Assembly (NCBI GenBank): GCA_964636895.1
Contig: CAZWUW010000002.1
Span: forward strand, 378 to 64,377
DNA length: 64,000 bases
Direction of reading: 5' to 3'
Source: an uncultured Eubacteriales bacterium
GTDB lineage: Bacteria > Bacillota > Thermincolia > Thermincolales > CAZWUW01
Every line of letters starts with the position of its first letter. Position 1 is the stretch's first letter. Both the position numbers and the translations under genes were made by a program. Below are positions 1,611-64,000 of this stretch, piece after piece. Below the pieces are notes generated by a model. The model searched no databases. It was not told the origin of the DNA and saw only the letters and a program-made list of their open reading frames with translations.

Positions 1611-3569
1611 ATGAAAAATAAAAAATGGGCACCGTCGGACGAATTATTAAATAAAACTAATATGGCTCAATTTATTGAATTTGTAAATCAAAAGCACGGC
1701 AACAAATTTATAACTTATAATGATTTATATAGCTGGTCTGTGCACAACAGCCCTGCTTTTTGGGCAGATATGTGGGAATTTGGAGGCATTAAGGCATCTC
1801 AGCCATATGAACATGTGATAGTGAATTTTGAAGATATGTTAAGTACCAAGTGGTTTGTAGGGGCACAACTTAATTTTGCAGAAAATCTGCTGAGGTTCCA
1901 GGATGAGCGGATAGCCCTGGTTTTTAAAGGAGAAGCGATGACCGGGGTTGTACGGATTAGTTACGCGGAGCTTTATAATCAAGTTGCCAAGTTAGCTAAA
2001 TCCTTACGGGAAACAGGTGTTGGTGTTGGTGACATTGTGGCCGGGTTTATGCCTAATATGATTGAAACGGTAGTGGCTATGTTAGCTGTTGCCAGCATCG
2101 GGGGCACATGGACGTCTTGTTCGCCGGATTTTGGAGTAAAAGGGGTGTTTGACCGGTTTGGGCAGGTTCGGCCTAAAGTGCTTTTTACAGCCAACGGCTA
2201 TTCATATGGGGGGAAAAGCATTAACTCCCTGGAGCGGGTAGCCGGAATTGTAAAAGAAATTCCGAGCATCGAGCGGGTAGTTGTGGTGCCTTATATAGAT
2301 AGCAGAACGGGCATTAGTCAAGTGCCGAATGCGGTTTGGCTCGAGGATTTTATTTCTGCTGAAGAAGGATTGAGTATTGAATTTGCCCAGCTTCCCTTCG
2401 ATCATCCCTTGTACATTATGTATTCCTCCGGTACTACAGGTGTACCCAAGTGCATCTTGCATGGCGCCGGGGGTACATTAATCCAGCATTTAAAAGAGCT
2501 GATGCTGCATACGGATTTAAAGCGGTCGGATACAATTTTTTATTATACTACATGTGGCTGGATGATGTGGAATTGGGTGGTAAGTTCTTTGGCGGTAGGA
2601 GCTACGGTGCTGCTATATGACGGGTCGCCATTTTATCCTAGTGCACAAGCGCTTTGGCAATTGGCGCAGGATGAGGGGGTTACCGTGTTTGGGACAAGTG
2701 CCAAGTATCTTGAATCGGTGGAGAAGGCCGATGTTAAGCCGGGTGCAAATTATAACTTAAGCAAGCTAAAGGTAATCCTATCAACAGGGTCACCCCTGTC
2801 TGATGATAGTTTTGAGTATGTCTACCGGGATATTAAAAAGGATGTGCAGTTATCCTCGATTTCTGGGGGCACGGATATTATCTCTTGCTTTGCCTTAGGA
2901 AACCCGATTATGCCAGTGTTTGCTGGTGAACTTCAGTGCCGGGGATTGGGCATGAAGGTAGAAAGCTTTGACCAAGCAGGTAACTCTGTGAAAAACCAAA
3001 AAGGTGAATTGGTATGCACGGCAGCATTTCCTTCGATGCCTATAGGTTTTTGGTGTGATCCAGATAATAGCAAATATAAAAGTACTTATTTTGATGTATA
3101 TCCTAATGTATGGCGTCATGGTGATTATGTTGAAATCACCGATGTAGGTAGTGTTGTGATTTATGGCCGCTCTGACGCCACCCTAAATCCTGGCGGGGTC
3201 AGGATAGGCACTGCTGAAATTTATCGGCAGGTCGAAGCTCTGCCGGAAGTCCTTGACAGTATCGTTGTAGGGCAAAATTGGGAAAATGATGTGCGGATAC
3301 TGCTTTTTGTAAAGTTGGTTAAGGATGTATCGTTAACAAGTGAACTGGTTAATAAAATCAAAACCACTATCCGGGAAAATGCCACACCACGGCATGTACC
3401 GGCTAAAATTATTGCTGTGGCTGACATACCTTATACCTTTAACGGTAAAAAGGTAGAAATGGCCGTAAGAAGTATTATACATAACGAGCCGGTGTCGAAC
3501 CGGGATGCTTTGGCCAATCCTGAAGCGCTGGAATTTTTTAAGGACTTGTTGGAAATAAAAGCAGTGTAA
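1611..3569 (+). CDS. acetoacetyl-CoA synthetase (acetoacetate-CoA ligase)
   Basis: 652 aa with AMP-binding motif YSSGTTGVPKCILH. The N-terminal region and length are typical of acetoacetyl-CoA synthetases. RBS AGGAGGG upstream. Confidence 0.8.
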   Translation: MKNKKWAPSDELLNKTNMAQFIEFVNQKHGNKFITYNDLYSWSVHNSPAFWADMWEFGGIKASQPYEHVIVNFEDMLSTKWFVGAQLNFAENLLRFQDERIALVFKGEAMTGVVRISYAELYNQVAKLAKSLRETGVGVGDIVAGFMPNMIETVVAMLAVASIGGTWTSCSPDFGVKGVFDRFGQVRPKVLFTANGYSYGGKSINSLERVAGIVKEIPSIERVVVVPYIDSRTGISQVPNAVWLEDFISAEEGLSIEFAQLPFDHPLYIMYSSGTTGVPKCILHGAGGTLIQHLKELMLHTDLKRSDTIFYYTTCGWMMWNWVVSSLAVGATVLLYDGSPFYPSAQALWQLAQDEGVTVFGTSAKYLESVEKADVKPGANYNLSKLKVILSTGSPLSDDSFEYVYRDIKKDVQLSSISGGTDIISCFALGNPIMPVFAGELQCRGLGMKVESFDQAGNSVKNQKGELVCTAAFPSMPIGFWCDPDNSKYKSTYFDVYPNVWRHGDYVEITDVGSVVIYGRSDATLNPGGVRIGTAEIYRQVEALPEVLDSIVVGQNWENDVRILLFVKLVKDVSLTSELVNKIKTTIRENATPRHVPAKIIAVADIPYTFNGKKVEMAVRSIIHNEPVSNRDALANPEALEFFKDLLEIKAV

Positions 3570-3580
3570 GGAGAAACAGT

Positions 3581-4036
3581 ATGAGGCTATTTGAACGTGA
3601 AATAAAGGTTGTTGTAGAAAAAAACAATAATCAGTTAAAAATTACTGCTGTACTAAATGATACGACCCATGATATGCAACTGGGCCTTTTGATTGATATT
3701 GACACCTTAGAGATAAAAGACGTTTCTGCCCAAATGGAACGCGTACCTTATGTTATCTGTCATAAAGCCCTTGATGGCATCGAAAACCTTGTAGGGTTGC
3801 GCATAGAGGCCGGAATCAACAAAAAGGTAAAAGCGTTGATTGGTGGCATCAAGGGCTGTGTGCACATTGTTGAACTGCTTCATGAGAGTTTTAAGGCGGC
3901 TTACCAGGCAAATATCCGCATAATTGTTAATGATATGACCGGTGATGCACGCACTGCCAAACTGGAAGCGCTGCTTAAGGGCTCCTGCCTAAGGTATACA
4001 GAGGAACACGCATTGATGGACTTGCACCTGCCGTAA
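3581..4036 (+). CDS. small conserved protein, DUF2889-like
   Basis: 151 aa, tightly coupled (11 nt) to the upstream gene. The GCVHIVELL motif and overall pattern resemble DUF2889; assignment is from memory only. Confidence 0.4.
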   Translation: MRLFEREIKVVVEKNNNQLKITAVLNDTTHDMQLGLLIDIDTLEIKDVSAQMERVPYVICHKALDGIENLVGLRIEAGINKKVKALIGGIKGCVHIVELLHESFKAAYQANIRIIVNDMTGDARTAKLEALLKGSCLRYTEEHALMDLHLP

Positions 4037-4074
4037 ACTAAAGTTAACACTGTGTAAATCAGGGGAACATTTAT

Positions 4075-4100
4075 CAACCGCCATGCCGGCGGTTTTTTCT
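4075..4100 (+). terminator. intrinsic terminator
   Basis: AACCGCC-atgcc-GGCGGTT hairpin followed by TTTTTT. Confidence 0.7.
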
Positions 4101-4176
4101 TTTGATTGACCGTTCGGGGGATATTATTAACCTTTTGACTTTGAAAAATTCAAATTCGCCCTTTTCTAATTAGTTT

Positions 4177-4192
4177 TGGCATTTATCTTGCG
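4177..4192 (+). promoter_or_regulatory. sigma-54 (-24/-12) promoter
   Basis: TGGCATTTATCTTGCG with GG-N10-GC spacing, 62 nt upstream of the acyl-CoA dehydrogenase start. Same TGGCATTT core as the 1551 site. Confidence 0.65.
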
Positions 4193-4253
4193 CTATAGAA
4201 ATGCGAAAGGTATTTGTGAGCTTGCCAATAATATTTTCAAAGGGGGAATATGA

Positions 4254-5393
4254 ATGAATTTTGAGTTAACAGAAGAACAGCAGATGCTAAGAAACATGGT
4301 CAGAGAGTTTGCCGAAGCGGAGGTGGCTCCCGGCGCCGAAGAAAGGGATAAAACCGGAGAATTTCCGCTGGACATTGTTAACAAACTGGCTGCACTTGAT
4401 CTGATGGGGCTGCCTTTTCCTGAGGAATACGGTGGTGCCGGAGGTGATACGGTAAGTTATGCCATTGCTGTGGAAGAATTGTCTAGGGCTTGCGCATCTA
4501 CGGGGATTACATACGCCGCCCACATTTCACTCGGTTCTTCACCTATCTACCTCTTTGGTACCCCAGAACAGAAGAAAACCTGGTTGGTACCGATGTCAAA
4601 AGGTGAATTCCTGGGCGCTTTCGGGTTAACGGAGGCAAACGCCGGTTCGGATGCCGGTGGAACCCAAACTACAGCTTATCTAGACGGTGATCAGTGGGTG
4701 ATCAATGGTTCGAAATGTTTTATCACCAATGTTAGTTACGCCGGGGCCACCACTATTACCGCAATTACGGAAAAAGGTCAAGGTTCCCGGGGGATTAGCT
4801 CACTTATTGTACCCAAGGACACTCCTGGATTAACCGTTAATTGTAATTATGAAAAGATGGGGCTACATGCTTCCAATACATGCGAAATGTTTTTTGACGA
4901 TGTCCGAGTGCCCCAAGAAAACCTGCTCGGTGAACGGGGGGAGGGTTTCAAACAATTCCTGCAGGTACTGGACGGTGGTCGAATCAGTATCGGCGCACTG
5001 GCTCTGGGCATTGCGCAGGCTTCACTGGATAAGGCATTGCAGTACGCCAAGGAACGGGTGCAATTCGGCCAATCAATATCTAAATTCCAGGCTATTCAAT
5101 TTAAATTAGCCGATATGGCTACCAATATTGAACTGGCCAGGTTGATGATCTGGAAGGCGGCCTGGCTCAAGGACAACAAGAAGCAGTTCGGCAAAGAAGC
5201 GGCCATGGCTAAGCTCTTTGCTTCTGAAATGGCCACCAAGGCTGCTCTGGAGGCGGTGCAAATCCTTGGCGGATATGGTTATATGCGAGAGTATCAGGTG
5301 GAACGGTATGTAAGGGATGCCAAACTCTGCGAAATCGGAGAAGGAACTTCTGAAGTACAAAGAATGGTAATTGCTAAATTATTGGGCTGTTAA
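4254..5393 (+). CDS. acyl-CoA dehydrogenase (isovaleryl-/short-branched-chain type)
   Basis: 379 aa with ACAD hallmarks (GLTEANAGSD, C-terminal YEGTSE-like EIGEGTSEVQR). Sits with methylcrotonyl-CoA carboxylase and HMG-CoA lyase genes. Confidence 0.85.
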   Translation: MNFELTEEQQMLRNMVREFAEAEVAPGAEERDKTGEFPLDIVNKLAALDLMGLPFPEEYGGAGGDTVSYAIAVEELSRACASTGITYAAHISLGSSPIYLFGTPEQKKTWLVPMSKGEFLGAFGLTEANAGSDAGGTQTTAYLDGDQWVINGSKCFITNVSYAGATTITAITEKGQGSRGISSLIVPKDTPGLTVNCNYEKMGLHASNTCEMFFDDVRVPQENLLGERGEGFKQFLQVLDGGRISIGALALGIAQASLDKALQYAKERVQFGQSISKFQAIQFKLADMATNIELARLMIWKAAWLKDNKKQFGKEAAMAKLFASEMATKAALEAVQILGGYGYMREYQVERYVRDAKLCEIGEGTSEVQRMVIAKLLGC

Positions 5394-5434
5394 AGTGTAA
5401 AGCGAGCGCATTTAAAAAAGGGGGAGTTAATAAA

Positions 5435-7120
5435 ATGAGTGGCAAAATTGATTTAACCAGCGAGCTTCTTACCGTTACTATCGGTGAGCTGCTGGACCAG
5501 ATGACCGAAAACTATCCGGATCATGAAGCGGTGGTATACACCGACCGCCCTATCCGCTGGTCTTATAGTGAATTTCGGGGGTTGTGTAACCAGTTTGCCA
5601 AGGGCCTAATGAAACTTGGTATAGCTAAGGGTGAACATATTGCTATTTGGGCTACCAATTACCCAGAGTGGATTGTCACCCAGTTCGGTTCGGCTAAAAT
5701 GGGAGCCGTGCTGGTAACGGTTAATGTCAACTACCAGGCCTTTGAACTGGAGTACCTGTTAAAACAGTCCGATGTAACCACATTAATCATGATTGAAGGC
5801 TATCGGGATGTAAATTATGTGGAGATGATCAAAACAGTCTGCCCGGAGATTAACGGCTCAAAAGCGGGCGAATTTAAAAGCGAAAAAGTGCCTAATCTGA
5901 AAAACATAATTTATATAGGTGAAAACACGCCTGAGGGAATGTTTAATTTTCGGCAGATTATGGAAATGGGTAATGAGGTGAGTGATGCTGAACTGGCAGC
6001 GCGACAGAACTCCCTGCATATTGAAGATGTTATCAATATGCAGTATACCTCTGGTACGACCGGCTTTCCTAAAGGGGTAATGCTTACTCACTTCAATATC
6101 ATCAATGATGCAAAATTTGTGGCGGAATGTATGGGGATTACCCATGCCGACCGGTTATGCTTCCCGGTCCCTTTATTCCATTGCTTCGGTTGTGTTATGA
6201 GCACTCTTGCCTGTGTGACACAGGGTGCTACGATGGTGCCGATTGAATATTTTGATGCGGAGAAGGTCTTACAGGCAGTTGAAAAAGAGAAGTGTACCGC
6301 TCTCCACGGCGTGCCGACCATGTTTATTGCCGAGTTGGAGATTATAAAAACCAAGTTTTATGATTTAAGCACTTTAAAAAGAGGAATTATGGCCGGTGCA
6401 TCCTGTCCTATTGAAGTCATGCGAGCCGTTGCGGAAAAAATGGGGATGTCGGAAATCACAATTGCCTATGGCCAAACTGAAGCATCGCCAGTAATTACTC
6501 AGACCAGGACCCACGATTCCCTGGAATTAAGAGTAACCACAGTGGGTAGGGCTATTCCCCATGCAGAGGTGAAAATAGTAGATCCTGACACTAGCATTGA
6601 AGTTCCGCGGGGTGTGCAGGGTGAACTCTGTACCCGGGGGTTTGGCATAATGAAGGGTTATTACAAAATGCCCGAGGCAACGGCTTCGGTTATAGATCGC
6701 GATGGCTGGCTGCACACCGGCGACTTGGCTACTATGGATGAAAAAGGTTACTGCAATATCACCGGTCGCTTAAAAGACATGATCATCAGGGGTGGTGAAA
6801 ACATTTATCCCAAGGAAATTGAGGAGTTCCTGTATACCCATACCAAGATTATGGATGTTCAGGTACTTGGTATCCCCAGTGAAAAGTATGGGGAAGAGGT
6901 TATGGCCTGTATCCGTGTGCGACCCGGAGAGCAGATGAATGAAGCGGAAGTACGGGAATACTGCCAAGGCAAAATATCCCGGCACAAAATACCAAAATAT
7001 GTTCATTTTATTGAACAATATCCAACCACGGCTAGTGGGAAGATTCAGAAGTTCAAGCTTCGGGAGATGGCCATTGAAATGTATAATCTCAAAAAAGCCG
7101 CTGAACAAAAAATGGCCTAA
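5435..7120 (+). CDS. AMP-dependent acyl-CoA synthetase/ligase
   Basis: 561 aa with YTSGTTGFPKGVMLTH AMP-binding motif and a C-terminal GKIQKFKLRE motif. Confidence 0.85.
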   Translation: MSGKIDLTSELLTVTIGELLDQMTENYPDHEAVVYTDRPIRWSYSEFRGLCNQFAKGLMKLGIAKGEHIAIWATNYPEWIVTQFGSAKMGAVLVTVNVNYQAFELEYLLKQSDVTTLIMIEGYRDVNYVEMIKTVCPEINGSKAGEFKSEKVPNLKNIIYIGENTPEGMFNFRQIMEMGNEVSDAELAARQNSLHIEDVINMQYTSGTTGFPKGVMLTHFNIINDAKFVAECMGITHADRLCFPVPLFHCFGCVMSTLACVTQGATMVPIEYFDAEKVLQAVEKEKCTALHGVPTMFIAELEIIKTKFYDLSTLKRGIMAGASCPIEVMRAVAEKMGMSEITIAYGQTEASPVITQTRTHDSLELRVTTVGRAIPHAEVKIVDPDTSIEVPRGVQGELCTRGFGIMKGYYKMPEATASVIDRDGWLHTGDLATMDEKGYCNITGRLKDMIIRGGENIYPKEIEEFLYTHTKIMDVQVLGIPSEKYGEEVMACIRVRPGEQMNEAEVREYCQGKISRHKIPKYVHFIEQYPTTASGKIQKFKLREMAIEMYNLKKAAEQKMA

Positions 7121-56360: not shown

Positions 56361-57647
56361 CTAACGGCCAATGCCTTGATAGATAAAACCCCTTGATTTC
56401 ATATCGGCAGGGGAAAATATATTCCGGCTGTCGATGATAATCGGTTTTTTCATGGTTTCATGCAGCAGGTTTAGGTCCGCCTTGGTGAAGATATCCCATT
56501 CGGTCATGATTATCAGGGCATCACAGTCCCGAACGGCGTCGTACATGTCAGCGCTAAGTTCTACTGCGGCCGGCAGCAGTTTCTTGGCATTTTCCATAGC
56601 CACCGGGTCATAGGCGGAGACGAGAGCCTGTTTATCCAAAAGCAGGTTAATTACCGGGATGGCCGGGGCAAAACGCATGTCGTCTGTTTCCGGTTTAAAG
56701 GCCAGTCCCCAAACGGCAACTTCCCTGTTTTCCAGTGGTCCCAGCAATTTTTCCAGTTTGCCTACCACTGTGGCAGGCTGGTCGGCGTTGACATCATGAA
56801 CTGCTTGTAAGAGCCGGGCGTTTTTACCTACTTTGTCTGCCAGGTGCAGCAGGCCGCTTAAATCTTTGGGCAGGCAGGAACCGCCGTAACCGGCGCCGGC
56901 CTTTAGGAAATGCATACCAATACGGGTATCATAACCTATGCCCCGGGCTACTTCGTTGATATCTACCGCATATTCTTCGCAAATACCCGCCAATTCGTTG
57001 ATAAAGGAGATTTTGGTGGCCAAAAAGCAGTTGGCGGCGTATTTAATCATTTCAGCGGCTGCGTTGGTGGTAAGCATTACCGGACATTCAATGCCCTGGT
57101 ACAAAGAACGGGTTATTTCAATGGCTTTTTGACTGTCGGCTCCAATGACTATGCGGTCCGGGTGGAAGGAGTCATAAATGGCGGTACCTTCCCGGAGGAA
57201 TTCCGGGTTGGAAACAATATTAAAATTTTCTTTTTGGACGCCATGCTCTAAAAGGAACTGCTCCAGAATCTTTTTTGTCCCCACCGGGACGGTACTTTTG
57301 TTAATAATAACTTTATACTTTTTCAGGTAGGGAATGAGCTGGCGGGCAACTTCCAGCACAAAGCTAAGGTCCGGTGAGCCGTCTTTGGCCGGGGGTGTGC
57401 CTACAGCGATCATAATAGCCCGGGCGTGGCCGACTGAATTCAGGCCGGTGGTGAATTTCAGGTTCTGTCCAAGGTGTTTTTGCAGCAGGGTATCAAGTCC
57501 TGGTTCATAAAAGGGAACCTTTCCTGATTTCAGTAAATTAACTTTTTCTTTGTCATTGTCCACGCAGGTTACCTGGTGGCCCAGCTCGGCAAACATGGCT
57601 CCGCTGGTCAGACCCACATAACCTGTGCCTATCACGGTAATATTCAC
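56361..57647 (-). CDS. UDP-glucose 6-dehydrogenase
   Basis: MNITVIGTGYVGL N-terminus and catalytic GGSCLPKD motif; 428 aa. Confidence 0.9.
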   Translation of the reverse strand: MNITVIGTGYVGLTSGAMFAELGHQVTCVDNDKEKVNLLKSGKVPFYEPGLDTLLQKHLGQNLKFTTGLNSVGHARAIMIAVGTPPAKDGSPDLSFVLEVARQLIPYLKKYKVIINKSTVPVGTKKILEQFLLEHGVQKENFNIVSNPEFLREGTAIYDSFHPDRIVIGADSQKAIEITRSLYQGIECPVMLTTNAAAEMIKYAANCFLATKISFINELAGICEEYAVDINEVARGIGYDTRIGMHFLKAGAGYGGSCLPKDLSGLLHLADKVGKNARLLQAVHDVNADQPATVVGKLEKLLGPLENREVAVWGLAFKPETDDMRFAPAIPVINLLLDKQALVSAYDPVAMENAKKLLPAAVELSADMYDAVRDCDALIIMTEWDIFTKADLNLLHETMKKPIIIDSRNIFSPADMKSRGFIYQGIGR

Positions 57648-57852
57648 TTGAAAACCTCCCTGTGAGTGCTTAGAATAATATTTCTTTTGCTGATATTGAT
57701 ATATTATGTTGACTGATAAAATTATGTTAACTAAAAGGAGGCTGTATTTGCCGGGAATATGTATTATATTAAAACTGAGGAAGAAAAGCTGTAAGCTACG
57801 ATGGCTTATGTTAAGGAGTCGTGTTTAGGATAAAAAAAGGGCGTGCACCCTA

Positions 57853-57938
57853 TAAAATGGACCCTATAAGGTAGACGGTTAAAAAAGAGGCCTACTGGCC
57901 GAAGAATTAACTGACTCTATTTTATAGGGTCCATTTTA
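57853..57938. repeat. 17-bp perfect inverted repeat with 52-bp spacer
   Basis: TAAAATGGACCCTATAA (57853-57869) and TTATAGGGTCCATTTTA (57922-57938). Confidence 0.9.
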
Positions 57939-58150
57939 ATGGGGAACAGGCTTTTTAATTGAGGGCACTGCTAACGTTTTAGAATCAGGAGCGGAATTTG
58001 ACATGATGAAAGAAAAATACCCCTTCCTGAGCAGAGTGCTTGAAATAACAGTTACATCTTTAAAACAAACTCTATAAGTTGAACCTTTAGCAGGCTAAAA
58101 ATTTCTAATGCCGTCGAGCTAGGCGCGTTTACACCGCTATATTTGTCATG

Positions 58151-58253
58151 AAAAAAGTAGTGCTATCTCAATTTGATAGACACTGCTTTTTTTGTAGCCA
58201 CAACTTATTTTCTCGAAAAGGATTTATTTGTACTGAGTAGAATAATGTTATAA
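58151..58253 (+). repeat. direct repeat copy 1 (terminator hairpin + extended -10 promoter-like segment) upstream of the SNF2 gene
   Basis: Matches 62965-63063. Contains the hairpin AGTAGTGCTATC...GATAGACACTGCT followed by a T-run, then TGTTATAAA about 50 nt before the SNF2 start. Confidence 0.85.
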
Positions 58254-58303
58254 AATGCGAGTCTTCCCGCATGATATATGACATTGTTAGGAGAGAATAG
58301 AAT

Positions 58304-60946
58304 ATGACGCGACAAGAAACACAAAAATTAAATGCCTATTTTTTACCGAAGGACTTTGTAATTGATGATATATTAAATCAACCGATGGACCCACTTAAAA
58401 CATGGATCGAGGCATTTGCAGCTGATAAATATAGTGCCTTATTTCATCTGGGCTTTTTAAAAAAAGAGAAATGGTTTTCACCTTCAATTGAATATCTCCA
58501 TCATATTGCAGAAATGCTGATAAAAAAACTAAGCCAACAGCCCGAAATTGAATTTAACCGGGACACCGTGCAAGTTGATTTACTAGAAGATGAGATGTAT
58601 CGCCTTAAGGAAGAGCTGCCATTTGTTATTGGCATGGAATATGTAGATGATGCTTGGATCCGAAGGGTATGGGAAGCGTTATTAGCTGTCTTTAGGTTAG
58701 AAATTAAAAATTATGATGGTACAGTTGCTAGGTATTTTGCCGAATATAACGCTAATATCAATGTAGTGGGAAGGGTATTTTTTCACTTGGTTGAGAATAA
58801 AGAAGAGCAGTATCCCTTTGCCTTTATGGCCACTTATTCAACAAAACCAGTCAAAAGCAAAAAAGCAGTACATACACCTTTGAAAAATGCGTTAGAAGAA
58901 TTTAATGGAGACGAAAAGAAATTACTTGCGCTTATTTCAACGGTTATCAAGGCAGCGGAAAAGAGCAGCTTCATTTCAGAATTACTGGAAAGTGGGGAAC
59001 TGTTCGCACCACTTAAGCTCACGGCTGAAGAGGCGTACACCTTTTTACGGGAAATCGCAACTTACGAAGAAGCCGGAATTATGTGCAGAGTCCCAGATTG
59101 GTGGCGTAAAAGCAACAATTCACTTCGGTTGTCGGTAACGGTTGGCGAAAAAGAGCCAGCCAAGGTGGGCTTAGAAGCCATTATGGAATTTTCACCATCC
59201 CTATATATAGGGGACGAGGTAATATCAGAACAGGAATTAAGAAGTTTTTTAGAAATGGCAGAAGGGCTGGTTTTGTATAAGGGTAAATGGGTTGAAATTA
59301 ACAAAAGAAAACTGGAAGCAGTACTTCAGGCATTTGAAAAGGTCAAAGATTTGACGGATGAAGAAGGTCTATCTCTTGGAGAGGCAATGAGGCTGGAATT
59401 AAATGTGAATAAGCTGCTGGATATTTCAATCGACGAGATAGATGTATCGATATCAAATGGACAATGGTTCAGAACAATGAAGGAAAGTCTGATTCATCCT
59501 GACACAATTCAAAAGGTGAGCATCGAGCCTTCGTTTCATGCGACATTACGAGCTTATCAGGAAAATGGTTATCATTGGCTCAACAAGATGTCCCATTTTG
59601 GATTTGGGGCCTGTTTGGCAGATGACATGGGACTTGGTAAAACGGTTCAGATGATTGCCTTTTTGGAATATCACAGAGTTCACAATGGTGGACAGGTACT
59701 TCTTATCCTGCCGGCATCGCTTATTGGAAACTGGCAGAAGGAAATCGAAAAATTTGCTCCCGAAATGTCGTATCAGATATTGCATAAAAGTGATTTAAAA
59801 ACCTCAGAAGCGATCCAAATCAGAGATGGTGAGTTTTTATATATCACCACCTATGGGATGGCAGTCCGATTGGAAGCACTAAAAAACAGAAAATGGGATT
59901 GTTTAATTTTAGATGAAGCGCAAGCCATAAAGAACCCAGGGACCAAGCAGACAAAGGCCATCAAAGCGATTCCAGCCAAGATGCGGATTGCGATGACTGG
60001 AACACCGATTGAAAACCGATTAAGTGACCTGTGGTCTTTATTTGATTTTTTGAATCAGGGGTTACTTGGAACGACTAAAGAATTTACTGAATTTACAAAA
60101 GGGCTTGCAGATAACGCGCACGGATACGCCAAGTTACGCAAGATGATCCAACCCTTCATGCTCAGAAGATTGAAAACCGATAAAAGTATTATTGCGGATT
60201 TGCCGGACAAACTGGAAATGAACGCCTACACGACCTTGTCAAAGAAACAGATTGTCCTCTATAAGCAGCTGATTGAACAGATTTCAGAAAAATTGAAAGA
60301 AGTGGAAGGCATTGAGCGAAAAGGGCTTGTCTTAGCCAGCATTATGAAATTCAAGCAAATATGCAATCACCCAGATCAATATCTGAGTAGAGAAGAATTT
60401 AAACCAGAACACAGCGGTAAGTTTGAACAATTGAGAGAAATCTGTGAAACAATATACGAGAAAAGGGAACGGGTTCTTATTTTTACACAATTTAGGGAGA
60501 TGACGGAGCCGATTTCAGATTTTCTTAGCGGCATATTTTCAAAACAAGGGTTTGTGCTTCATGGAGGTACGCCTGTAAAACGACGAAATGAGATGGTCGA
60601 ACAGTTTAATGGGGAGCATTATGTACCTTATATGGTGCTGTCGCTTAAGGCTGGCGGCGTAGGACTTAATCTGACAGGGGCCAATCATGTCATTCATTTT
60701 GACAGATGGTGGAATCCGGCAGTTGAAAATCAAGCAACAGACCGTGCCTTTCGTATTGGTCAGACAAAGAATGTGATGGTACATAAATTTGTAACAAAAG
60801 GCACAATAGAAGAGAAGATTGATACCATTATTGAAGAAAAACAGAGGCTGTCAGGAGATATTTTAAGTGCTGGAGGCGAACAGTGGATTACAGAGTACAC
60901 TGATGAAGCGCTACTGAAAATATTTGCTTTGGGCGGTGACGCATAA
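58304..60946 (+). CDS. SNF2-family helicase/translocase with long N-terminal accessory domain
   Basis: 880 aa with LRAYQENGYHWL, DDMGLGKTVQ (motif I), LILDEAQAIKN (motif II) and a C-terminal helicase domain (GGVGLNLTGANHVIHFDRWWNPA..QATDRAFRIGQ). Confidence 0.9.
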   Translation: MTRQETQKLNAYFLPKDFVIDDILNQPMDPLKTWIEAFAADKYSALFHLGFLKKEKWFSPSIEYLHHIAEMLIKKLSQQPEIEFNRDTVQVDLLEDEMYRLKEELPFVIGMEYVDDAWIRRVWEALLAVFRLEIKNYDGTVARYFAEYNANINVVGRVFFHLVENKEEQYPFAFMATYSTKPVKSKKAVHTPLKNALEEFNGDEKKLLALISTVIKAAEKSSFISELLESGELFAPLKLTAEEAYTFLREIATYEEAGIMCRVPDWWRKSNNSLRLSVTVGEKEPAKVGLEAIMEFSPSLYIGDEVISEQELRSFLEMAEGLVLYKGKWVEINKRKLEAVLQAFEKVKDLTDEEGLSLGEAMRLELNVNKLLDISIDEIDVSISNGQWFRTMKESLIHPDTIQKVSIEPSFHATLRAYQENGYHWLNKMSHFGFGACLADDMGLGKTVQMIAFLEYHRVHNGGQVLLILPASLIGNWQKEIEKFAPEMSYQILHKSDLKTSEAIQIRDGEFLYITTYGMAVRLEALKNRKWDCLILDEAQAIKNPGTKQTKAIKAIPAKMRIAMTGTPIENRLSDLWSLFDFLNQGLLGTTKEFTEFTKGLADNAHGYAKLRKMIQPFMLRRLKTDKSIIADLPDKLEMNAYTTLSKKQIVLYKQLIEQISEKLKEVEGIERKGLVLASIMKFKQICNHPDQYLSREEFKPEHSGKFEQLREICETIYEKRERVLIFTQFREMTEPISDFLSGIFSKQGFVLHGGTPVKRRNEMVEQFNGEHYVPYMVLSLKAGGVGLNLTGANHVIHFDRWWNPAVENQATDRAFRIGQTKNVMVHKFVTKGTIEEKIDTIIEEKQRLSGDILSAGGEQWITEYTDEALLKIFALGGDA

Positions 60947-61662
60947 TGGGCTATTATGGATATCCAAAGTATGAATCAGTTGCAGAAAAAAAGGCTAAGG
61001 CGAGTAGGAGCCTTGCGAAACTTAAAAAGAAAAATCCCGATATTGAGCCCGTAATCATAGAAGGTAGGACACTTGCGAAAAATTGGTGGGGCAAGTCTTG
61101 GAATTTGAATCTTGAAAGCTATGCAGATTATGGGAATCGGATTGCAAGGGGTAAAAGCTATGTTCGCGGTAATACGGTTTTGGATTTAAAGATATTTAAG
61201 GGACGGATAGTGGCGAAGGTTCAAGGAAGCCGGTCAAAGCCCTATGAAGTCGAGATTAAAATTGATACTTTAAACAACGAGAAGTGGGAGCAGGTCACGA
61301 CATTATGCAATCACAGAATCGATTCGTTGGAACAATTGATTGAAGGGAAATTTCCAAAGGAATTAGAGGTTTTATTTACAGAAAGAAAGTATGGTATGTT
61401 TCCATCGCCAAAAGAAATTCATTTTGATTGTAGCTGCCCCGATTGGGCCAGCATGTGCAAACATGTTGCGGCGGTATTATATGGGGTTGGTGCCAGATTA
61501 GATGTTAATCCTATGCTTTTTTTCGAGCTCAGAGCTTTGGATGGCCAAGAACTTGTCAGAAAATCGATGGAGCAAAAGCTGGAAAGCATGATGAAAAATG
61601 CAGGCAAGAAAAGCAAGAGAGAAATTGCCGATAAGGATATAGCAAATATATTTGGGCTATAG
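60946..61662 (+). CDS. SWIM zinc-finger protein
   Basis: 238 aa with CSCPDWASMCKHVAAVLY (CxCx(n)CxH SWIM signature). The TAATG overlap with the SNF2 gene implies translational coupling. Confidence 0.8.
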   Translation: MGYYGYPKYESVAEKKAKASRSLAKLKKKNPDIEPVIIEGRTLAKNWWGKSWNLNLESYADYGNRIARGKSYVRGNTVLDLKIFKGRIVAKVQGSRSKPYEVEIKIDTLNNEKWEQVTTLCNHRIDSLEQLIEGKFPKELEVLFTERKYGMFPSPKEIHFDCSCPDWASMCKHVAAVLYGVGARLDVNPMLFFELRALDGQELVRKSMEQKLESMMKNAGKKSKREIADKDIANIFGL

Positions 61663-61700
61663 CAATAGAACTAAAAAGCTGAAAAAGGGAGATTTAAATT

Positions 61701-62447
61701 ATGAGTATTGACCATTGTGCAGGATATACTTTCCCGCCATCTCTCAATCCCCGGTATACATTCGAAACCTTTGTTGTTGGCAGCAGTAACAAATTTGCCC
61801 ATGCCGCCGCACTTGCAGCAGCGGGATTACAGGCGCAATATAGTAACCCGCTTTTTATATATGGCGGGGTCGGGCTTGGCAAAACCCATCTAATTCAGGC
61901 TGTTGGGAATCTTGCATTGCAAAATAATCCTGGCACTAAAGTTTTATATGTATCTGCAGAGGGATTTGTCAATGAATTAATTAACGCAATCCGGGATGAT
62001 ATGACTGTGTACTTTAGGGATAAATACAGGGGACTTGATATGCTCATCATTGATGATGTTCATTTTCTGGCAGGCAGAGAAAGGACGCAGGAAGAACTTT
62101 TTCACACTTTTAATGCTTTGTATGAGGCTAACCAGCAAATTATAATATCCAGCGCCCAACCCCCTGGGGAAATACCTGTTCTGGCGGAAAGCCTACGTTC
62201 AAGATTTGAGGGTGGGTTAATGGCAGAGATTAAGCACCCTGATATTGAAACCCGAACAACGATTTTACAAAAAAGAATTCAATTCGAAAACCTACAGATT
62301 CCTGATGATGTTATTAATTATATAGCCGAACAATTGCATGCCAACATCAGGGAATTGCAGGGGGCCTTGACCAAGGTAATCTTTTATGCTTCTGTTGCAC
62401 AGAGGCCAATTAGTTTAGGCCTTGCCGGTGAAGCTTTACAATATTGA
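61701..62447 (+). CDS. DnaA paralog consisting only of the AAA+ domain III (no domains I/II, no DNA-binding domain IV)
   Basis: 248 aa with [22 protein letters not shown], Walker [10 protein letters not shown], Walker [16 protein letters not shown] (box VII) and NIRELQGAL (box VIII). It ends at ...LAGEALQY, where DnaA domain IV would begin. Own RBS AAGGGAG. Confidence 0.8.
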
Positions 62448-62615
62448 GGTCGGTTTTGCAGTGGTAGCGGAAGCTGCTTTTTTTTTGTTCGCAGAAGGTG
62501 AGAATAGTGTCGAAAAAATTAGACAGAATTACCACTGCAACCGATAATAATATTGTCAAGTTTTTTGTATAAAATGGTATAATACAGTTAGTAAAAAAGA
62601 ATGGAGTTGATTTTA

Positions 62616-62861
62616 ATGACTTGGGAAGAAGTGAGAAAGTTATACCCAAACCAGTTTGTTATGTTTGAAATTGTAAAGTCTCATGTTGTGGGTAATCAGG
62701 AGCATGTTGATGATATCGCACTAATTAAGGCAATTGACGACGACAAGGAAGCAATGAAAGAGTTTATTCAAAGCAAAGAAGGTCAATATGTTTACAGTAC
62801 AAATAACAAGGAAGTTGTTATTGAGTTGATAAAGCATGTTGGGAACGAATCGATGGTTTAA
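62616..62861 (+). CDS. small hypothetical protein
   Basis: 81 aa from the ATG (MTWEEVRKLYPNQFV...) 9 nt after GGAG. No family recognised. Confidence 0.4.
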   Translation: MTWEEVRKLYPNQFVMFEIVKSHVVGNQEHVDDIALIKAIDDDKEAMKEFIQSKEGQYVYSTNNKEVVIELIKHVGNESMV

Positions 62862-62964
62862 TTGGGCTGGACTTCATGAAAGCTTCAGGATTAATATTGG
62901 ATTTGGAGGAACTTGTATATTATAAAAAAAGACACAAACGGTGATTAATGTGAAAAATATACAT

Positions 62965-63063
62965 AAAAAAAGTAGTGCTATCTCAATTTGATAGGCACTA
63001 CTTTTTTACTACAACTAATTCCATGAAAAGGATATATTGGTACTAAGTCGAATAATGTTATAA
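62965..63063 (+). repeat. direct repeat copy 2 (terminator hairpin + promoter-like segment) upstream of the methyltransferase gene
   Basis: Aligns with 58151-58253. The first ~30 nt and last ~13 nt are near-identical; the middle is diverged with small indels. Confidence 0.85.
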
Positions 63064-63189
63064 GTGGAGTGTGTGGCGGCATTAAAGCGTGCCTCCAACC
63101 CTTGGAAATAAAGGATTTATACGGGTTCTATGGTAAGCAGAATTTACATGCTACCCTTGAAGTAGTAACAATGAAGACATTGTCGATAA

Positions 63190-64000
63190 AGCCAGGCCAA
63201 AAAGCCGGATGATGCGCGAACCACGCGCTTTTTAGGTAAAAGCAATTACGTTGTAAAACCATTTGTAAAGTGGGCTGGCGGCAAGGCTCAAATTCTGAAC
63301 AATATACGCTCTTATTATCCAGTACAATTGGGGAAAAAAATCACGAAATATGCCGAGCCTTTTGTTGGGGGTGGCGCAGTATTGTTTGACGTTATTAGCC
63401 GCTATGACCTTGAAGAAATATATATAAGTGACATAAACAGAGAATTGATAAAGACATATATAAGTATCCGTGACAATTTAGAGGAATTGCTTGTTGCTTT
63501 GCGTTCCCTTGAGAAAGACTACCTTCCGCTTGGTACGGATAAACGGAAAGATTATTACTACGCCAAACGCGACAGGTTTAACGCCTTGAAAACTGGCAAC
63601 GAGAATGATGTGGAGCTTGCGTCATTGTTTACCTTCCTGAACAGGACTTGTTTTAATGGTCTTTATCGAGTGAACAGCAAAGGAGGATTCAATGTTCCGA
63701 TGGGGAGCTATAAGAATCCGACCATTTGCGACGAGGAAAATTTGAGAGAGGTCTCAAGAAGGGTACAAGGCGTAAAAATCGTATGCGGAGATTATAAGGA
63801 ATCGGCTGATTTTATTGATTCAAAGACATTTGTTTACTTTGACCCGCCTTATCGTCCGCTTTCGGCGACATCGAGCTTCACGGCTTATTCGCAGGACGGA
63901 TTTGGCGACCAAGAGCAGATGGAATTGGCAAGGTTTATTGACGAAATGAGCGCAAAAGGCGCTGCCATTGTTGCCAGTAACTCTGACCCTAAAAATACCG
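63190..64000 (+). CDS. dam: Dam-type (D12 class) N6-adenine DNA methyltransferase, 3' end beyond window, start problematic
   Basis: KPFVKWAGGKAQIL, EPFVGGGAVLFD (FxGxG SAM motif), NRTCFNGLYRVN and catalytic DPPY. The open frame begins after a TAA at 63187-89 and has no in-frame ATG/GTG/TTG before the conserved N-terminal motif. Confidence 0.8.

Follow-up and report, generated by a model that had tools for sequence, protein, structure and literature searches.

The replication initiator DnaA is nearly always single-copy and vertically inherited. The proteobacterial DnaA inactivator Hda (HdaA), which acts in RIDA, is a DnaA-related AAA+ domain of about 230–250 aa that has an Arg finger but lacks a DNA-binding domain, and an N-terminal β-clamp-binding motif of the QL[SD]LF type targets it to DnaA after initiation. 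To our knowledge, the DnaA of Firmicutes is controlled by the unrelated proteins YabA, SirA, and Soj, and not by an AAA+ paralog of the Hda type.

The roles of individual DnaA residues were taken from three studies (PMC5742627, PMC10721633, PMC10201431). R281 of E. coli DnaA stabilizes DnaA oligomers, is required for helicase loading and not for unwinding, and represses the intrinsic ATPase (PMC5742627). Residues T26, W27, and F49 in domain I of the B. subtilis protein are essential for DnaD recruitment (PMC10201431), while K222 contacts the DNA backbone and the linker between domains III and IV comprises residues 333–346 (PMC10721633). Thermincola is among 12 genera with two dnaA copies, which were merely counted in the study concerned (PMC3080875), and this copy-number remark was the sole result of our literature searches on domain-IV-less or defense-linked DnaA paralogs. 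A 248-aa DnaA-like protein encoded near the end of a 64-kb stretch of DNA, the whole of which is referred to as the window, was compared here with these systems.

The DnaA-like ORF and its domain content

The ORF starts with ATG, occupies positions 61701–62447 of the forward strand, and encodes 248 aa, exactly as described in the initial annotation, whose observation was confirmed in every particular. The protein matched Bac_DnaA in Pfam over aa 15–175 (E = 2.5e-64, 217 bits) and the TIGR00362 DnaA model over profile positions 103–336 of 437, where its 331.4 bits did not reach the curated cutoff of 343.9; neither DnaA_N (PF11638) nor Bac_DnaA_C (PF08299) had a Pfam match in it. Walker A (55–63), Walker B (IIDDV, 116–120), RSRFEGGL (166–173), and NIRELQGAL (215–223) were read directly from the protein. 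It aligned to residues 106–343 of the 446 residues of B. subtilis DnaA (8btg) and ends in ...GEALQY, and since this end corresponds to B. subtilis residues 343–344, the protein stops inside the III–IV linker. No remnants of domain I or domain IV were detected by tblastn elsewhere in the 64-kb window, including the region downstream of the ORF.

The AlphaFold2 model of the protein had a pLDDT of 85 and a pTM of 0.80, with disorder confined to residues 1–10, and its comparison with domain III of B. subtilis DnaA gave a TM of 0.88–0.93 and an rmsd of 1.7–1.9 at 57% identity. The profile matches, motifs, and predicted fold thus bore out the earlier description of DnaA domain III as a separate protein whose catalytic motifs are intact, and the missing PF11638 and PF08299 matches, together with the end in the linker, agreed with the stated absence of domains I, II, and IV. 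Because two Logan assemblies that are independent of each other (L007 and L008) encode an identical 248-aa protein, the ORF is not an assembly artifact.

The initial annotation had credited the gene with its own RBS and a T-rich, terminator-like segment, and both were present. The RBS (GGGAG, 61687–61691, forward strand) lies 9 nt 5′ of the ATG, but the same leader occurs in the L001 contig, so that RBS and start were inherited from the full-length paralog described below. A terminator-like hairpin (GGTAGCGGAAGCTGCT followed by T9; 62463–62488, forward strand), a consensus match only, lies 16 nt 3′ of the stop codon; it is absent 3′ of the DnaA-like gene in L001, and terminator-like sites around the ORF were not enriched (7 observed vs. 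5.1 expected). No DnaA box was present within 400 bp upstream of the ORF, compared with four at the locus of a canonical DnaA (P0121), and an Rfam scan of positions 57000–64000 gave no match.

A clade of DnaA paralogs without domain IV

The closest database proteins to the window protein were domain-IV-less paralogs and not canonical DnaAs; one of them, P0002 (338 aa), is encoded by L001 and shares 94% protein identity with it. Together they form a clade of 11 proteins (P0002–P0007, P0019, P0021, P0196, P0008, and the window protein). The long members, of 338–359 aa, combine DnaA_N with the ATPase domain and have no DnaA_C, so that 9 of the 11 carry domain I, whereas the window protein and P0008 consist of domain III only. 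In all members, the C-terminus falls at most a few residues away from ‘...EALKD’, in the III–IV linker. P0003 comes from Thermincola potens JR, for which the genome is complete, P0019 comes from Firmicutes HGW-14, and further members were found in metagenomes. P0008, the second and independent domain-III-only derivative, has a strong RBS of its own and is a singleton.

The profile search ranked the clade together with the full-length, 450-aa DnaAs P0121–P0124, with which it shares the lid motif ‘VILYSSVKQSQIT’. The closest canonical DnaA, P0121 (GCA_016841045.1), is a genuine initiator, because its gene is part of an rnpA-dnaA-dnaN-recF-gyrB locus and is preceded by four DnaA boxes. Many other matches without a DnaA_C annotation were rejected as clade members because they were canonical DnaAs cut by contig ends, and the 233-aa candidate P0282 was discarded because it is a chromosomal dnaA with a frameshift, on a contig rich in errors. 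Among the matches listed, a scan of reference genomes with P0002 returned only canonical DnaAs of at most 49% identity, none of them from Thermincola or from the genome of the window, while tblastn searches of phage and plasmid collections gave just canonical dnaA genes below 60% identity and no relatives of the clade.

A bootstrapped neighbor-joining distance tree was calculated from 236 domain III columns. All 11 domain-IV-less proteins were monophyletic with 100% bootstrap support and had long branches, and their sister group was P0121–P0124 (80%). The window protein and P0002 were paired at 100%, and P0008 was nested elsewhere in the clade. Membership of the window protein was thus seen in the 100% bootstrap value, in its stop within the linker, and in the presence of S164 and G171, two replacements found across the clade. 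The topology of the tree shows that domain IV was lost a single time, after duplication of a chromosomal dnaA in a Thermincola-like lineage, and that domain I was lost secondarily on two independent occasions. Thermincola ferriacetica and HGW-14 have canonical DnaAs that branched outside the clade, which implies that the paralog has spread horizontally from genome to genome; it occurs as a solitary gene in low-GC accessory or defense islands.

The clade evolves faster than canonical DnaA, with a mean identity of 66% within the clade compared with 85% among canonical DnaAs. Nevertheless, dN/dS was 0.16–0.19 across the clade in five comparisons (0.16 for the window protein vs. P0008), so that the paralog is maintained by purifying selection. 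Five of seven independent loci lie within about 10 kb of defense or toxin–antitoxin genes: a Ppl-like/SLFN island beside tRNA genes, McrBC-like genes with MazE/PIN, MNT/HEPN, a FokI-like R-M system with Vsr, and, at the window locus, SNF2 with PDC-M08 and DpnII. The remaining two contexts were ordinary metabolic neighborhoods. No conserved operon partner was found across the clade loci, the small adjoining genes of different loci being mutually unrelated, and the clade genes had 0–1 DnaA boxes upstream, which is not a cluster, compared with four for a real dnaA.

Conserved and altered residues

The window protein keeps Walker A K61 and T62, Walker B D118 and D119, the Arg finger R168 (B. subtilis R264, E. 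coli R285), sensor II R217 (B. subtilis R313, E. coli R334), and the DnaA-trio capture residues E87, N91, I94, I97, R106, and E132. Retained throughout the clade were Walker A and B and the equivalents of B. subtilis R264, R313, I190, I193, R202, and E228. By contrast, the box VII Arg (B. subtilis R260, E. coli R281), invariant in 20 canonical DnaAs, was replaced by S, G, or T in 11 of 11 clade members (Ser164 in the window protein), and W267 (B. subtilis) by G or S, likewise in all 11 (G171 in the window protein). The sensor-1 Asp (B. subtilis D248, E. coli D269) was changed in nine members and N187 in six. The long members keep the DnaD-binding triad of domain I, which reads FETW...NGFA in P0002; the window protein has lost this domain, which is present in 9 of the 11.

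N-terminal deletion and selection on the window allele

The L001 contig is 96% identical to the window over the SNF2 and SWIM genes, and in the final 750 bp of the DnaA-like gene the nucleotide identity is 96.8%. According to blastn and alignment, L001 positions 4280–4543 (264 bp, in frame) are missing from the window, where the deletion junction, a GTG microhomology, lies at 61717–61719 on the forward strand. The deletion takes codons 8–95 (88 codons) of the 338-aa relative, which correspond to domain I and the linker including the FETW...F triad, but leaves the leader, the RBS, and the initial codons (MSIDHC) in place. The initial view that the gene looked designed and not like a fragment is correct only in part: the loss of domain IV is ancient and common to the whole clade, which is under purifying selection, but that of domains I and II in this allele is a very recent deletion.

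The window and L001 copies of the DnaA-like gene differ by 15.5 nonsynonymous and 7.5 synonymous substitutions, giving a dN/dS of 0.59, which is indistinguishable from neutral (p = 0.32) and rests on just ~23 substitutions. At equal divergence, the flanking genes had dN/dS values of 0.08 (SNF2) and 0.12 (SWIM), and the difference from the DnaA-like gene was significant (Fisher p = 2e-4), while synonymous divergence was oddly low in the DnaA-like gene (p = 0.02). When amino acid changes were polarized, seven of nine fell on the window branch, which was not significant (p = 0.18); K126R is a change on this branch, at a position (B. subtilis K222) that is invariant elsewhere. Since recent substitutions were indistinguishable from neutral while the neighboring genes were strongly constrained, this pattern lowers the odds that the 248-aa allele would be a tuned regulator.

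The locus and its rearrangement

At about 57.5 kb, the GC content drops from 49%–57% to 36%–42%, and the genes that follow, all on the forward strand, conform to the accessory block suggested in the initial annotation. The first is an SNF2-family helicase gene (DUF3670, SNF2, and Helicase_C; 58304–60946), which is followed by its SWIM-zinc-finger-like partner (60946–61662; SWIM 19.4 bits, slightly below the cutoff). The stop codon of the SWIM-like gene lies 38 nt 5′ of the DnaA-like start, with no terminator in between. Downstream of the DnaA-like gene are a PDC-M08A-like small gene, which is a candidate defense gene (62601–62861; PADLOC 5.5e-26) with its last five codons altered by a deletion, and the last ~88 nt of a PDC-M08B retropepsin-like gene (62842–62929), recognized by comparison with L001. 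This latter gene has lost about 316 bp relative to L001 positions 3818–4133, including the start and the catalytic DTG region.

The block from SNF2 to M08 is bounded by a direct repeat of ~125 nt that contains a terminator hairpin and a promoter-like segment, with one copy at 58147–58272 and the other at 62962–63082; the copies are 93% identical in the hairpin part and 75% identical in the promoter-like part. A gene for a D12-class (Dam-type) N6-adenine methyltransferase (63382–64000) runs past the window end. The L007 assembly, with its identical DnaA-like protein, also extends beyond this point, and there the DpnII endonuclease partner of the methyltransferase is a 64-aa fragment just past the window end.

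Gene order differs between the two contigs: it is SWIM, PDC-M08A, PDC-M08B, and the DnaA-like gene in L001, and SWIM, the DnaA-like gene, PDC-M08A, and the 88-nt PDC-M08B remnant in the window. In L001, the SWIM stop codon is immediately followed by 17 nt that match the sensor II region of the DnaA-like gene exactly (~9e-6 expected by chance). This scar was left by a deleted copy in the place that the gene occupies in the window. In view of it and of the difference in gene order, the two genes, in the window and in L001, may be related as paralogs rather than as orthologues.

Discussion

Canonical Firmicute DnaA (B. subtilis PDB 8BTG/8BV3; P0121–P0124) is homologous to the window protein along all of domain III, with 57% identity for B. 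subtilis and at most 67% for P0121, and the two share Walker A and B, the Arg finger (R264), sensor II (R313), and the ISM residues for DnaA-trio capture. Canonical DnaA, however, has domain I, the hub of its contacts with DnaD and the helicase, domain II, and the HTH domain IV for DnaA-box binding, all three of which are missing from the window protein, and it keeps R260, W267, and the sensor-1 Asp, which are replaced in the window protein. Its gene lies beside dnaN and an oriC with DnaA boxes, whereas the fast-evolving window gene lies in a low-GC accessory island. The second dnaA copy of T. potens JR counted in PMC3080875 is P0003, and the window gene belongs to the same clade. The missing domain IV, monophyly, mobility, and derived box VII changes, as read from the sequences, would be new relative to the literature found.

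The resemblance to Hda that was pointed out in the initial annotation is real with respect to architecture, as the protein has no domain other than an AAA+ domain of the DnaA type, which includes an Arg finger (R168, equivalent to B. subtilis R264). Orthology was rejected by the scores against the Hda models (TIGR03420, 122.1 vs. 194.8; NF005982, 67.5 vs. 268; HdaA, 36.8 vs. 300), and Hda structures matched the predicted model with a TM of only ~0.6 at 22%–24% identity. No β-clamp-binding motif was found in the window protein, the N-terminal tail of which has no Q; two loose regex matches both fell within the folded lid. The protein arose independently and recently from a Firmicute DnaA, and an action on DnaA-ATP via AAA+ contacts would be possible in principle. 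The inhibitors YabA, SirA, and Soj and the prophage protein YqaH resemble the paralog in the proposed mode, a sequence-independent interference with DnaA oligomerization or with the DnaA:DnaD contact, but they are unrelated in sequence and fold and bind DnaA as inhibitors, whereas the window protein would be a DnaA mimic. For the mode that competes for DnaD, the window allele lacks the domain I surface (T26/W27/F49).

In our judgment, the window ORF is probably a recent deletion allele of a mobile accessory DnaA paralog and most likely a weakened, decaying remnant of it. The chromosomal dnaA of a Thermincola-like Firmicute was duplicated, and the copy lost domain IV at the III–IV linker. Such a protein could presumably not find DnaA boxes alone and would act just through head-to-tail AAA+ contacts with DnaA-ATP, ssDNA binding, and the titration of DnaD through domain I, in the manner of a mimic, modulating DnaA assemblies or capping them. 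A modulating or capping role is proposed because the clade-wide loss of the oligomer-stabilizing Arg suggests that assemblies containing the paralog would be less stable or incompetent for helicase loading, and poisoning of DnaA filaments by the clade, an activity already considered in the initial annotation, is plausible. In the window allele, the microhomology-mediated deletion of 264 bp then stripped domain I and the linker in frame and left the AAA+ module alone, which could presumably no longer bind DnaD and would have a residual capacity for co-oligomerization at best. Decay is considered the most likely state of this allele because the DnaD contact has been lost, recent constraint is relaxed, and the neighboring genes are decaying. 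Some observations speak against decay: the in-frame deletion falls neatly at a domain boundary, the catalytic residues and those that contact ssDNA are all intact, and the fold is confidently predicted. For these reasons, and since P0008 arose independently, the loss of domain I may have been tolerated or even selected.

A functional minimal regulator would make more of the same features. The stand-alone AAA+ module would then be under selection and would restrain or poison initiation in an Hda-like manner, by inserting its Arg finger into the DnaA-ATP filaments of the host or an invader or by capping them. We hold this to be rather unlikely but the main rival, as the protein has Walker A and B, the Arg finger, sensor II, and the majority of the DnaA-trio contacts unimpaired in a confidently predicted fold, the deletion kept both the frame and the RBS, P0008 provides an independent domain-III-only derivative, and a long-term dN/dS of 0.16 separates the window protein from P0008. 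This last value, however, mostly reflects the time spent as the longer form, and the recent dN/dS of 0.59 stands against 0.08–0.12 in the neighbors, which themselves show visible decay; furthermore, each of the two short forms is a singleton that has not founded a lineage, and neither a clamp-binding motif nor any other recruitment device was found. A defense-related initiator mimic, with which the clade and perhaps this allele would serve the island either as a decoy for anti-DnaA proteins encoded by phages or by inhibiting invading replicons that rely on host DnaA or DnaD, appears quite improbable to us. The proximity of five of the seven contexts to defense or toxin–antitoxin genes would fit, but such an association with variable regions is expected of any horizontally acquired gene, and the other two contexts are metabolic. 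Fast evolution of the clade and the horizontal spread implied by its phylogeny point in the same direction, and DnaA-targeting prophage proteins, e.g., YqaH and YfdR, are known. Yet a PADLOC-DB v2 search with the 248-aa protein gave no significant defense match, the best being a weak AAA+ similarity to mad8 (1.6e-5; a local P-loop match of 40 residues), and there was neither a conserved partner gene nor a relative in the phage and plasmid collections.

That the ORF is no more than a pseudogene piece of the resident dnaA, left by recent duplication and truncation, is effectively refuted and must be considered very improbable. The DnaA equivalog model did score far above Hda (331 vs. 122 bits), but no canonical DnaA more than ~67% identical was found among 5.8 billion proteins, an argument that holds if the resident gene is among them, and the best canonical DnaAs were just 59%–67% identical in domain III, in line with the initial annotation, which had not taken the ORF for such a fragment. 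The protein is also nested in a clade with 100% support and shared derived substitutions, and the window contains no remnant of domain IV. The initial annotation had named truncation scars relative to the resident dnaA as the sign of a pseudogene fragment; a scar was indeed found, but relative to the paralog P0002 and not to the resident gene. An IstB/DnaC-type transposon helper ATPase or helicase loader has practically no probability left. The secondary Pfam match to IstB_IS21 (PF01695, 2.3e-11) that would favor it is set against 217 bits for Bac_DnaA and 64 bits for IS21_help_AAA (NF038214), for which the cutoff is 200, and both these score thresholds and the genomic context, without an adjoining IS21 transposase, refute it, as does the match of the predicted structure to DnaA domain III at 57% identity.

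Returning to the deletion allele of a mobile paralog, a role of the clade in conflicts between hosts and mobile elements is conceivable, because the clade prefers variable and defense islands. A bolder proposal is that the domain-IV-less paralogs are a hitherto undescribed class of mobile ‘initiator mimics’, which accessory islands would direct against DnaA- or DnaD-dependent replication of the host or of invading replicons or would employ as decoys for phage anti-DnaA factors, with the bare module as an active cap. We regard this as unlikely and offer it as speculation; if the module were an active filament cap, the window protein would be an independently evolved Firmicute analogue of Hda.

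A mobile clade without a DNA-binding domain and with an altered box VII would be a natural dominant-negative or initiator mimic. It offers ready-made separation-of-function variants for studies of DnaA filament assembly and possibly reveals how mobile elements may manipulate replication by a route not seen before. The allele in the window is of interest chiefly as a pointer to this clade and as a snapshot of a gene whittled down to a single domain.

A probable acquired island around the DnaA-like gene

In the window, GC content falls at position ~57500 from 49-57% to 36-42%, with low values persisting through the end at 64000. This change indicates a horizontally acquired island from ~57500 to 64000, and an imperfect inverted repeat of 28 nt is located just 5′ of it (window 57848-57943). 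Within this region, the block comprising the SNF2-family helicase, its SWIM-zinc-finger-like partner, the DnaA-like gene and M08A is flanked on both sides by copies of a direct repeat of ~125 nt (window 58147-58272 and 62962-63082), in which a terminator hairpin that looks bidirectional precedes a promoter-like segment. A third version of the repeat was found at 5347-5465 of the related contig L001, 3′ of its DnaA-like gene. The repeat might act as a substrate for recombination or mark the boundary of a module.

Further downstream, a D12-class (Dam-type) methyltransferase was found at window 63382-64000. The contig L007, which encodes the identical DnaA-like protein and extends past the window end, covers this region including the downstream genes (2077-4547). 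There, the methyltransferase is followed by a DpnII endonuclease present only as a 64-aa fragment of the full ~278 aa, as well as by part of a helicase similar to type I R subunits. The methyltransferase thus looks like an orphan left from a degraded restriction-modification system.

Loss and possible exchange of DnaA-like copies

The small protein and retropepsin-like protease of PDC-M08A/B form a candidate defence pair in PADLOC (window 62601-62929; L001 3591-4245). While the pair is complete in L001, a deletion of ~316 bp in the window has removed the M08B start and catalytic region and altered the last five codons of M08A. Immediately 3′ of the SWIM stop codon, L001 carries a 17-nt exact piece of the DnaA-like gene (L001 3472-3488, matching window 62350-62366), which is the scar of a lost DnaA-like copy. 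Because L001 retains this scar, the ancestor probably had two tandem DnaA-like copies, one on either side of PDC-M08.

The DnaA-like genes of the two strains (window 61701-62447 and L001 4544-5293) had 7.5 synonymous differences over 166 sites, compared with 73.5 over 694 sites in the flanking SNF2 and SWIM genes. The lower synonymous divergence of the DnaA-like gene (p = 0.02, two strains) hints at its recent gene conversion or exchange.

Other loci of the clade and the reverse truncation

Besides the window protein, P0008 (L013 1478-2194) is the other member of the clade with domain III only, and it is independently derived. Its gene has its own AAGGAGG RBS and adjoins an MNT/HEPN pair (nucleotidyltransferase and HEPN), and the protein is a singleton in the database.

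The reverse truncation relative to this clade, which lacks domain IV, was seen in several 342-aa "DnaA" entries with domains III and IV and without a DnaA_N match. Their contigs are 2.8-5.5 Mb long, and they include P0044, P0093, and P0119, from Clostridium putrefaciens, Clostridium spp., and C. tetani. The source labels one of these three entries as "partial". Such entries may be real short initiators or start-codon miscalls.

The 345-aa paralog P0196 has identical left flanks in two assemblies (L095 and L096), whereas the right flank is rpoD-dnaG in one and arginase with spermidine synthase in the other. The difference stems from a rearrangement or from chimeric assembly. In Thermincola potens JR (CP002028, 1127843-1148862), the paralog is located at the end of an island holding a Ppl-like ATPase, an SLFN/AlbA_2 protein, and two unknown genes. 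It is directly followed by tRNA-Leu and tRNA-Cys, an arrangement typical of an integrated element.
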